A stretch of 8,088 nucleotides of DNA from a virus (taxonomy: Duplodnaviria > Heunggongvirae > Uroviricota > Caudoviricetes). The translations under genes were made by a program, and so were the position numbers. The notes under the pieces are model-generated. The model was not told the origin of the DNA. It ran no database searches and was given only the letters and a program-made list of their open reading frames with translations. Location: IMG/VR virus record IMGVR_UViG_2690316345_000016; one strand, 5' to 3'. Position 1 is the stretch's first letter. Each line of letters begins with the position of its first letter. Of the stretch, positions 7,389 to 8,088 are shown piece after piece.

Positions 7389-7978
7389 TGTTCTGGAAGA
7401 AGAAAGAAGAGAAACAACTACAGCCAGTACCAAAGAAACTACGTCAGCGTAATGCACAATCCAGTACATTGAAGAAAGATATTCAGGCAGCACGTAATAC
7501 GTCAGTAATGAATTTTGGGTTCAATACAAATACGGGAAGTAATATTAACTTTCTGTTGATGAAAGCGTTACCTACATTCCGTGCTTTTAGTCGTGATGCA
7601 ATTTTGAAAAATCCGATAGGTCGTAAGTATATGAACCTTTCGGTAGATGGGGTAGTGGGTAGTGATGGGGTATATGTAAAACCCGCCGTAGAACTTGAAC
7701 AGGATGATGCAGTACTTAACGAGATTAACCAGCAGTTAGAAAAACTGTTTGACCGATGGGCATACAATCCAGACCGCTTTAGCATCGATGGAGCATTGAG
7801 TTTCGACTTATTCCAGCAGACGGTTGAAAAGATACGCGTTCAGGATGGCGAGTGCTTCATTAGAATCCATACAAACAACGGACAGATTCAAATTGAAATT
7901 ATCGATGCTGCACGATTAATACAGCTTAATAATCAGTTCTTGTCTAATGGTAACTATATTAGCAACGGTATTGGGTAA
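7388..7978 (+). pseudogene. Probable phage portal protein, N-terminal ~197 aa only; truncated by IS1 insertion
   Basis: Position immediately after terL and the 176-aa gene with TAATG coupling. It begins with a basic N-terminus ([21 protein letters not shown]) and has weak, recalled similarity to lambda-family portal N-terminal regions. The reading frame ends at TAA 7976-7978, which is part of the IS1 terminus GGTAATG; a portal would be expected to be >400 aa. Confidence 0.4.
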
Positions 7979-8088
7979 TGACTCCAACTTATTGATAGTG
8001 TTTTATGTTCAGATAATGCCCGATGACTTTGTCATGCAGCTCCACCGATTTTGAGAACGACAGCGACTTCCGTCCCAGCCGTGCCAGG
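7974..8088 (-). mobile_element. IS1 terminal region (the end proximal to insB), extending beyond the window
   Basis: 7974-8088 (GGTAATGACTCCAACTTATTGATAGTGTTTTATGTTCAGATAATGCCCGATGACTTTGTCATGCAGCTCCACCGATTTTGAGAACGACAGCGACTTCCGTCCCAGCCGTGCCAGG) matches the IS1 end including its terminal inverted repeat, from memory. Confidence 0.85.
7989..8088 (-). CDS. insB: IS1 transposase InsB, C-terminal fragment (5' part outside the window)
   Basis: Reverse-complement translation gives [32 protein letters not shown], the recalled C-terminus of IS1 InsB; the stop codon complement lies at 7989-7991. Confidence 0.8.

Follow-up and report, generated by a model that had tools for sequence, protein, structure and literature searches.

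A recent IS1 insertion truncates the portal gene of a lambda-type Escherichia coli prophage that carries a conserved split terminase gene

The DNA analyzed here (the window, 8,088 nt) is the entire draft contig CYCA01000088.1 from Escherichia coli assembly GCA_001285045.1. It carries a segment of a lambda-type prophage in which cargo genes are followed by the genes for the small (terS) and the large (terL) terminase subunit, a gpW-like gene, and a portal gene. The right end of the contig is located inside a copy of the insertion sequence (IS) element IS1; the contig breaks there because short-read assemblers cannot cross this multicopy repeat. An earlier note on this DNA had proposed that IS1 truncates the portal gene and provides its stop codon, and had taken this, together with a frameshifted terL, as a sign of a non-functional packaging module in a prophage remnant that is retained for its cargo. 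The features at the junction between the portal gene and IS1 are as follows.

7388..7978, plus strand: truncated portal gene, consisting of 195 native codons, then GGG (Gly) at the junction and TAA; ATG 7373 is another possible start
7965..7973, no strand: predicted 9-bp IS1 target site ACGGTATTG, placed by the junction position and the known 9-bp IS1 duplication
7974..8088, minus strand: right-end inverted repeat (IRR) of IS1 and 3' end of the transposase gene, with 100% identity to IS1 copies
7976..7978, plus strand: stop codon of the truncated portal open reading frame (ORF), a TAA in the IS1 tip GG-TAA-TG, in frame according to the ORF list

All 115 nt at 7974–8088 are identical to copies annotated as IS1A or IS1B in at least 5,000 plasmid records. 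IS1 is about 768 bp in length, codes for InsA and the InsAB' transposase, and generates a target duplication of 8–9 bp. The window end corresponds to nt 1–115 of the IS1A element from pLVPK and, because the transposase of that element is encoded on the opposite strand, represents the IRR. The IRR terminal inverted repeat GGTAATGACTCCAACTTATTGATAGTG is present, the next 88 nt are also canonical for IS1A/IS1B, and of the transposase gene, on the minus strand, no more than the final ~100 nt fall within the window. The portal side of the junction is defined by comparison to ten prophage loci that are near-identical to the window but whose portal gene is uninterrupted. These show 99.95–100% sequence identity to window positions 148–7973 (BLAST), and the alignment to all ten ends exactly at base 7973. 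Where the uninterrupted loci read GGT ATT GAG TTC GAT, the window reads GGT ATT G/GG TAA TG (the slash marks the junction). The stop codon TAA at 7976–7978 is located wholly within IS1 and closes, in frame, the ORF that starts at 7388 (or 7373). Thus, the proposal that an IS1 terminus with the sequence GGTAATG begins at 7974, and that the TAA within it ends the upstream reading frame, is confirmed. That the stop codon is supplied by IS1 is unremarkable and carries no particular significance: as either tip of IS1 has a stop codon at an identical offset (GG-TAA-TG or GG-TGA-TG), about one-third of all insertions will end the host ORF at once.

The truncated ORF proved to be a true portal gene, as had been supposed. 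Residue for residue, it matches the first 195 aa of the 500-aa lambda-family portal protein from the related locus L004, so that 305 of 500 residues are missing. The fragment matches the Pfam family Phage_portal_2 (PF05136) with an E-value of 1e-16 (61.5 bits vs. a cut-off of 32.9; profile positions 16–156 of 354) and also matches PHROG 21 portal. On TIGR01539 portal_lambda, it attains 50.4 bits, below the cut-off of 172.7, and covers profile positions 16–161 of 457; an uninterrupted 500-aa relative reaches 225.1 bits vs. 172.7 on this profile and 195.7 bits on PF05136. The gene occupies the place expected for a portal gene: terS, terL, and a small head-tail joining gene precede it, and in the uninterrupted relatives a protease/capsid gene follows. 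Judged by its profile coverage, the portal gene of the window is a gene fragment devoid of the profile core rather than a functional member of the family. Portal proteins are needed for head assembly, and without the portal core no procapsid forms or packages. We infer that a prophage copy which lacks 61% of its portal protein cannot make virions. A 326-aa "partial portal" from Shigella sonnei (P0094) was considered as the missing C-terminal half but was rejected, as its source is another prophage, with 83% identity. For annotation purposes, the 196-aa "portal protein" should be treated as a fragment and the contig break as repeat-caused.

The same portal::IS1 junction, ATTG followed by GGTAATGACTCC, is found in L018, L002, L017, and the window, with 27, 74, 126, and 115 nt of IS1 attached, respectively, while L016 ends 5 nt before it. 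These contigs stem from different assemblies and assemblers (NCBI, ENA SPAdes, Logan). As the junction is shared by independently assembled contigs, a chimeric contig end is excluded. Between the window and uninterrupted relatives, 7,826 nt align with 100% identity, without a single substitution. The IS1 insertion is therefore very recent, and a period of retention is not visible. IS1 resides inside a coding sequence and causes an immediate polar truncation, as in classic IS1 disruptions; there is no difference in kind, except that IS1 is visible from only one end in the window. Insertional inactivation of a prophage portal gene by IS1 is an already known kind of event and represents routine decay in an IS-rich E. 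coli clone.

The second gene that had been considered disrupted, terL, is distributed over two reading frames (ORFs 4937–5461 and 5430–6845), with the following features.

4937..5458, plus strand: zero-frame part of terL (gpA family), ending with Leu-Leu of the Walker B motif; GpA_ATPase positions 14–134
5456..5462, plus strand: frame-change site CTT TGA C, with one extra T compared to in-frame homologues; identical to the heptamer of prfB, the gene for release factor 2 (RF2)
5460..6845, plus strand: +1-frame part of terL, with Asp-Glu of the Walker B motif, the remainder of the ATPase (GpA_ATPase positions 134–247), and the nuclease (GpA_nuclease)

The zero-frame part is homologous to residues 1–174 of in-frame TerL proteins, which have a length of 617–638 aa. 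Where in-frame homologues have CTT GAY or equivalent at the Walker B motif, the sequence of the window is ATG GTG TTA CTT T GAC GAA, so that the frame change is located exactly between Leu-Leu and Asp-Glu (window 5447–5462, ATGGTGTTA CTT TGA CGA). When the extra T is skipped, a 635-aa protein results, which shows one continuous match to GpA_ATPase (14–247 of 247, 165 bits) followed by the nuclease domain, and which is colinear with the in-frame 617–638-aa homologues without any residues lost or gained. L064, the in-frame sister of the window group of alleles, has 97% identity to terL of the window and differs locally by the lack of a single T. A conceptually repaired TerL (635/600 aa) identical to the window allele was not encountered in the protein collection. 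Likewise, a shifted terL was not detected in any cultured phage, the closest TerL among 50,697 phage records having 35% identity.

The split of terL into ORFs of 139/174 aa and 471 aa occurs in all near-identical relatives whose portal, protease-capsid, and tail genes are intact. It also occurs in complete Klebsiella genomes, which show 95.2% sequence identity to the window over 3.6 kb (175 substitutions, no gaps). A census of 106 homologous terL loci from GTDB genomes, JGI metagenomes, and IMG/VR revealed 96 in-frame alleles and 10 shifted ones, and all 10 are shifted at the same CTT TGA C. This heptamer is found in terL of L023, L025, L039, L055, L056, L096, L100, L112, L113, and L145–L147, and it is directly preceded by TGGTGTT[A/G] in all shifted loci. 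According to a neighbor-joining tree, the shifted alleles represent three lineages: the window group, Pseudescherichia vulneris and its relatives (77% protein identity to TerL from the window), and a JGI metagenome contig (80%). Between these lineages, synonymous sites are saturated (proportion of synonymous differences, pS, 0.66–0.79) at a protein identity of 80%–91%; over the three lineages as a whole, amino acid identity ranges from 77% to 100%. For shifted alleles within a lineage, the ratio of nonsynonymous to synonymous substitutions (dN/dS) is 0.06–0.09 in both halves of terL, and none of the shifted alleles has any other stop codon or indel. When the three shifted lineages are compared, the 45 nt around the site show a three-way identity of 0.867 vs. 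0.591 overall, which corresponds to rank 1–2 among 1,876 stretches of this length and makes them the most conserved part of the gene. The same 45-nt stretch attains only rank 71–1515 of ~1,860 in eight in-frame control trios of similar divergence. With its conserved site, purifying selection on both halves, and no other disruption, terL is unlike a decaying pseudogene. The interpretation of its frameshift as a sign of decay is therefore not supported, and a split terL beside the portal gene should not be read as a pseudogene.

The portal gene of the window is not the only target of IS elements in this prophage family, which has been struck repeatedly. At its left end, the window starts with another IS element:

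1..147, plus strand: IS2-type element of the IS3 family, right end, internally deleted by ~92 bp; prophage homology begins at 148

This region shows 100% identity to IS3-family transposase elements from E. coli, in two pieces that together span 239 bp of the reference, and the same left-end junction is present in L016 and L017. A sub-lineage with the same portal::IS1 junction has the end of an IS100 element (IS21 family) inside the gene for an HNH endonuclease-like cargo protein (L002 1–75 and the head of L018; corresponding to ~731 of the window), and this gene has been cut by IS100 as well as by IS2 in sister isolates. In strain GCA_005396945.1 (L015 7741–7933, L014 1–160), an IS2 has inserted into the portal gene 14 bp downstream of the IS1 site. 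Its tip provides the stop codon TAG, a 5-bp duplication (AGTAC) is present, and the portal remainder, the capsid gene, and the tail genes are all found downstream of IS2. In two complete Klebsiella genomes (L145 and L146; 12347–14915), an IS with a DDE_Tnp_1 domain interrupts the portal gene after ~codon 323 and ~codon 401, respectively, and here too the portal remainder follows the IS. Finally, a gene coding for a 917-aa tail protein carries IS1 in other E. coli isolates (L011, L012) and an IS in L145 and L146. Like E. coli cryptic prophages, the window copy is of lambda type and carries several IS elements (IS1, IS2, and, in the sub-lineage, IS100), one of them in an essential morphogenesis gene. 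The cryptic prophages of strain K-12 are heavily deleted and diverged, whereas the window copy is very young and is 100% identical to its uninterrupted relatives outside the IS junctions.

We consider it likely, with a probability of roughly 0.88, that a recent clonal insertion of IS1 truncated the portal gene and led to the loss of virions, while the split terL is not a second lesion. An IS1 copy, of which the window contains only the first 115 nt (the IRR end), has transposed into codon 196 of the 500 portal codons. The TAA of its terminal repeat ends the portal ORF after 195 native residues and one glycine, and this prophage copy would, without the portal core, produce no virions. The insertion is both recent and clonal, the same junction being found in ~12 assemblies of one lineage, which also has an IS2 at the left contig end. 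The split of terL is a fixed feature of the prophage lineage, and +1 frameshifting at CUU UGA C is its most likely mode of decoding. Several points weigh against this explanation. The loss of virions is derived from established portal biology, frameshifting in terL has been deduced from sequence, with its trans-frame product only predicted, and the far side of IS1 has left no trace of this clone in the protein collection. Of 15 predicted C-terminal portal remnants, none from the window clone was found by exact match among ~15 billion proteins. The set consisted of five remnants with internal starts and ten edge-partial ones, including read-through from the left-end inverted repeat (IRL) of IS1 (...SWQHHHGIEFDKY...). 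The sole remnant on record is the 297-aa form with a GTG start, and it originates from the different strain GCA_005396945.1, which has IS2 in its portal gene. Two exact junction scans of IMG/VR for the far junction of IS1 also returned nothing. The left end of IS1 reads ...AAGTTGGCAGCATCACC, and a simple insertion predicts the IRL, then a second copy of ACGGTATTG beyond the contig end, and then AGTTCGATAAG; the junction on the IRL side should read GGCAGCATCACC-ACGGTATTG-AGTTCGATAAGTACC, with portal codon 196 onward as its last part. The target duplication ACGGTATTG is a prediction, and a deletion or rearrangement bounded by IS1 may have occurred instead.

Such an event is the most serious alternative, though we consider it the less probable one: IS1 would then mark the edge of an IS1-mediated deletion or inversion, the portal remainder and perhaps the head and tail genes would have been lost or moved, and a remnant bounded by IS2 and IS1 would persist. 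The N-terminal portal fragment is on record from ~12 assemblies generated with several assemblers, while no C-terminal remnant of the clone is in the protein collection. For L017, with its 126 nt of IS1, a complete ORF of 297, 252, or 245 aa would be expected if the portal remainder followed IS1. In addition, the contig ends coincide with IS ends on both sides (IS2 on the left, IS1 on the right). Absence by exact match is weak evidence, however, because the choice of start codon, a single-nucleotide polymorphism, or annotation as a pseudogene could hide the fragment, and the portal remainder is present in every related genome whose assembly crosses an IS in the portal gene. We thus infer that the insertion was simple rather than deletion-associated. 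It is highly improbable that IS1 was joined to an intact portal gene by mis-assembly. The contig does end in a multicopy repeat, where short-read assembly is least reliable, but the identical junction occurs in contigs from different assemblers, and chimeras would not recur at one nucleotide. The explanation closest to the earlier note, namely two independent lesions (the terL frameshift and IS1 in the portal gene) in an old, decaying remnant which is kept for useful cargo, is in our view unlikely. It accommodates the truncated portal gene, the independent recurrent IS insertions in the portal and tail genes of the prophage family, and the plausible defence function of the cargo, which includes a strong match to methyl-directed restriction enzymes beside an HNH nuclease. 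However, the terL shift is common to relatives with complete morphogenesis genes and has been kept in three lineages despite saturated synonymous sites, with both sides under purifying selection and without other disruptions. Neither long-term decay nor long-term retention is visible in a sequence that matches uninterrupted relatives without a single difference over 7,826 nt, and the HNH cargo gene itself is cut by IS100 or IS2 in sister isolates. The claim that the remnant is retained for its cargo is thus unsupported. What holds of the supposed non-functional packaging module is the portal gene cut by IS1; the conserved split terL is not to be counted as a further lesion.

Returning to the recent clonal IS1 insertion with a terL that is split but not defective, the question is how such a gene would be expressed. 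The terL site is a well-supported candidate for +1 recoding of the prfB type in a phage large terminase. We consider it somewhat more probable than the contrary that terL of this lineage, in E. coli, Klebsiella, and Pseudescherichia as well as in metagenomic relatives, is expressed via a conserved +1 frameshift at CUU UGA C. If tRNA-Leu slipped by +1 from CUU to UUU, the Leu-Leu-Asp-Glu of the Walker B motif would be restored. The frameshift efficiency would then limit how much full-length TerL is made, and with it DNA packaging, and cellular RF2 activity might tune TerL. It is unlikely that the two parts of terL form a two-polypeptide enzyme, because the split is located inside the Walker B motif. 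Transcriptional slippage would be another way to read terL but is also unlikely, given a T run of only 3 nt.

CUU UGA C is the heptamer of the +1 frameshift in prfB by which RF2 is autoregulated. The terL site shares with prfB this identical heptamer, in which UGA followed by C represents a weak stop context, and has a purine-rich GGUG 3 nt upstream where prfB carries AGGGGG. This GGUG has the spacing expected of a Shine-Dalgarno-like stimulator and occurs in every shifted allele. The pairing energy predicted for it is −5.4 kcal/mol, compared to −10.7 kcal/mol for the element of prfB, and 10 of 46 distinct in-frame sequences pair equally well or better. As a candidate stimulator, GGUG is therefore weak and not distinctive. 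There are further differences from prfB. As terL codes for a phage large terminase, the logic of release-factor autoregulation is not directly applicable. Also, in-frame alleles dominate the terL family (96/106), and frameshifting in terL is a prediction from sequence. In the searchable literature, we found no report of recoding of this kind in a gpA-type terminase. The only terminase case in the review by Atkins et al. (2016; PMC5009743) comes from a Streptomyces phage and concerns bypassing that may occur there; the same review treats the correction of "savior indels" by frameshifting as a known category. If terL is indeed expressed by +1 frameshifting, a phage structural or packaging gene would join the very short list of bacterial recoding events of the prfB type, and full viability may be retained by hundreds of prophages of E. 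coli and Klebsiella whose terminase is at present annotated as "frameshifted" or as two pieces. A simple testable link between the activity of the host termination factor and phage packaging would also be established.

The remaining genes of the window comprise those which flank terL and those of the cargo region.

211..939, plus strand: HNH endonuclease-like cargo gene (Pfam HNH, 2.4e-06; PHROG HNH endonuclease families; PADLOC mREase_IV, 1e-07)
940..1731, plus strand: cargo gene for a predicted methyl-directed Type II restriction endonuclease (PADLOC mREase_II, 3.4e-61; phrog_24787, 2.1e-39)
4441..5022, plus strand: small terminase subunit, terS (phrog_57 terminase small subunit, 3e-19)
6858..7388, plus strand: head-tail joining protein at the position of lambda gpW (phrog_5774 head-tail joining, 3.6e-11)

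The stop codon of the head-tail joining gene overlaps the portal start codon (TAATG). Gene callers place the start of terL at GTG 5042 or at a later ATG. The start which is conserved among in-frame 629–638-aa homologues (METNK...) is at 4937, which results in an overlap of 86 nt with the end of terS. In L025, the terS frame continues into the N-terminal part of terL, resulting in a single ORF of 284 aa.

The gene order resembles that of the lambda operon Nu1-A-W-B-C, with terS, a gpA-family terL, a small head-tail joining gene, and a lambda-family portal gene in the same order. In the relatives with an uninterrupted portal gene, the likeness continues with a protease-capsid fusion downstream of the portal gene; tail genes are present as well. 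On the other hand, sequence identity is low (the best cultured-phage match of TerL from the window has 35%), the relatives have a fused Peptidase_S78-capsid protein where lambda has a C/Nu3/E arrangement, and terL of the window lineage requires a +1 frame change. For the prophage part at 4400–7973, megablast revealed no close match in 72,556 plasmids, 50,697 phage records, and 5,426 complete RefSeq E. coli genomes, the single match being to strain G3/10 with 79% identity. By these comparisons, the prophage lineage has no cultured representative. The prophage is common in draft assemblies of E. coli and Klebsiella, where it occurs on hundreds of contigs.

Upstream of terS, the adjacent nuclease genes at 211–1731 probably constitute a prophage-borne defence pair. 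The protein encoded by the first gene shows weak similarity to Type IV methyl-directed restriction enzymes, while the match of the second one to PADLOC mREase_II spans profile positions 2–155 of 161. The Klebsiella version of the prophage has other genes in the cargo slot (Hcp, DUF3800, DUF1493, and others), and the slot thus looks like a variable hot-spot. Several small ORFs of no assigned function are located between the cargo genes and terS. One ORF of 169 aa (in the region 2323–3166) weakly resembles, with a score below the cut-off, the C-terminal portion of an EAL-type cyclic di-GMP (c-di-GMP) phosphodiesterase (NF008617; 1.9e-06, 27 bits vs. a cut-off of 190). The ORF that follows it starts with a lipoprotein-like signal, MKILIVMLVVLLTCCGS.

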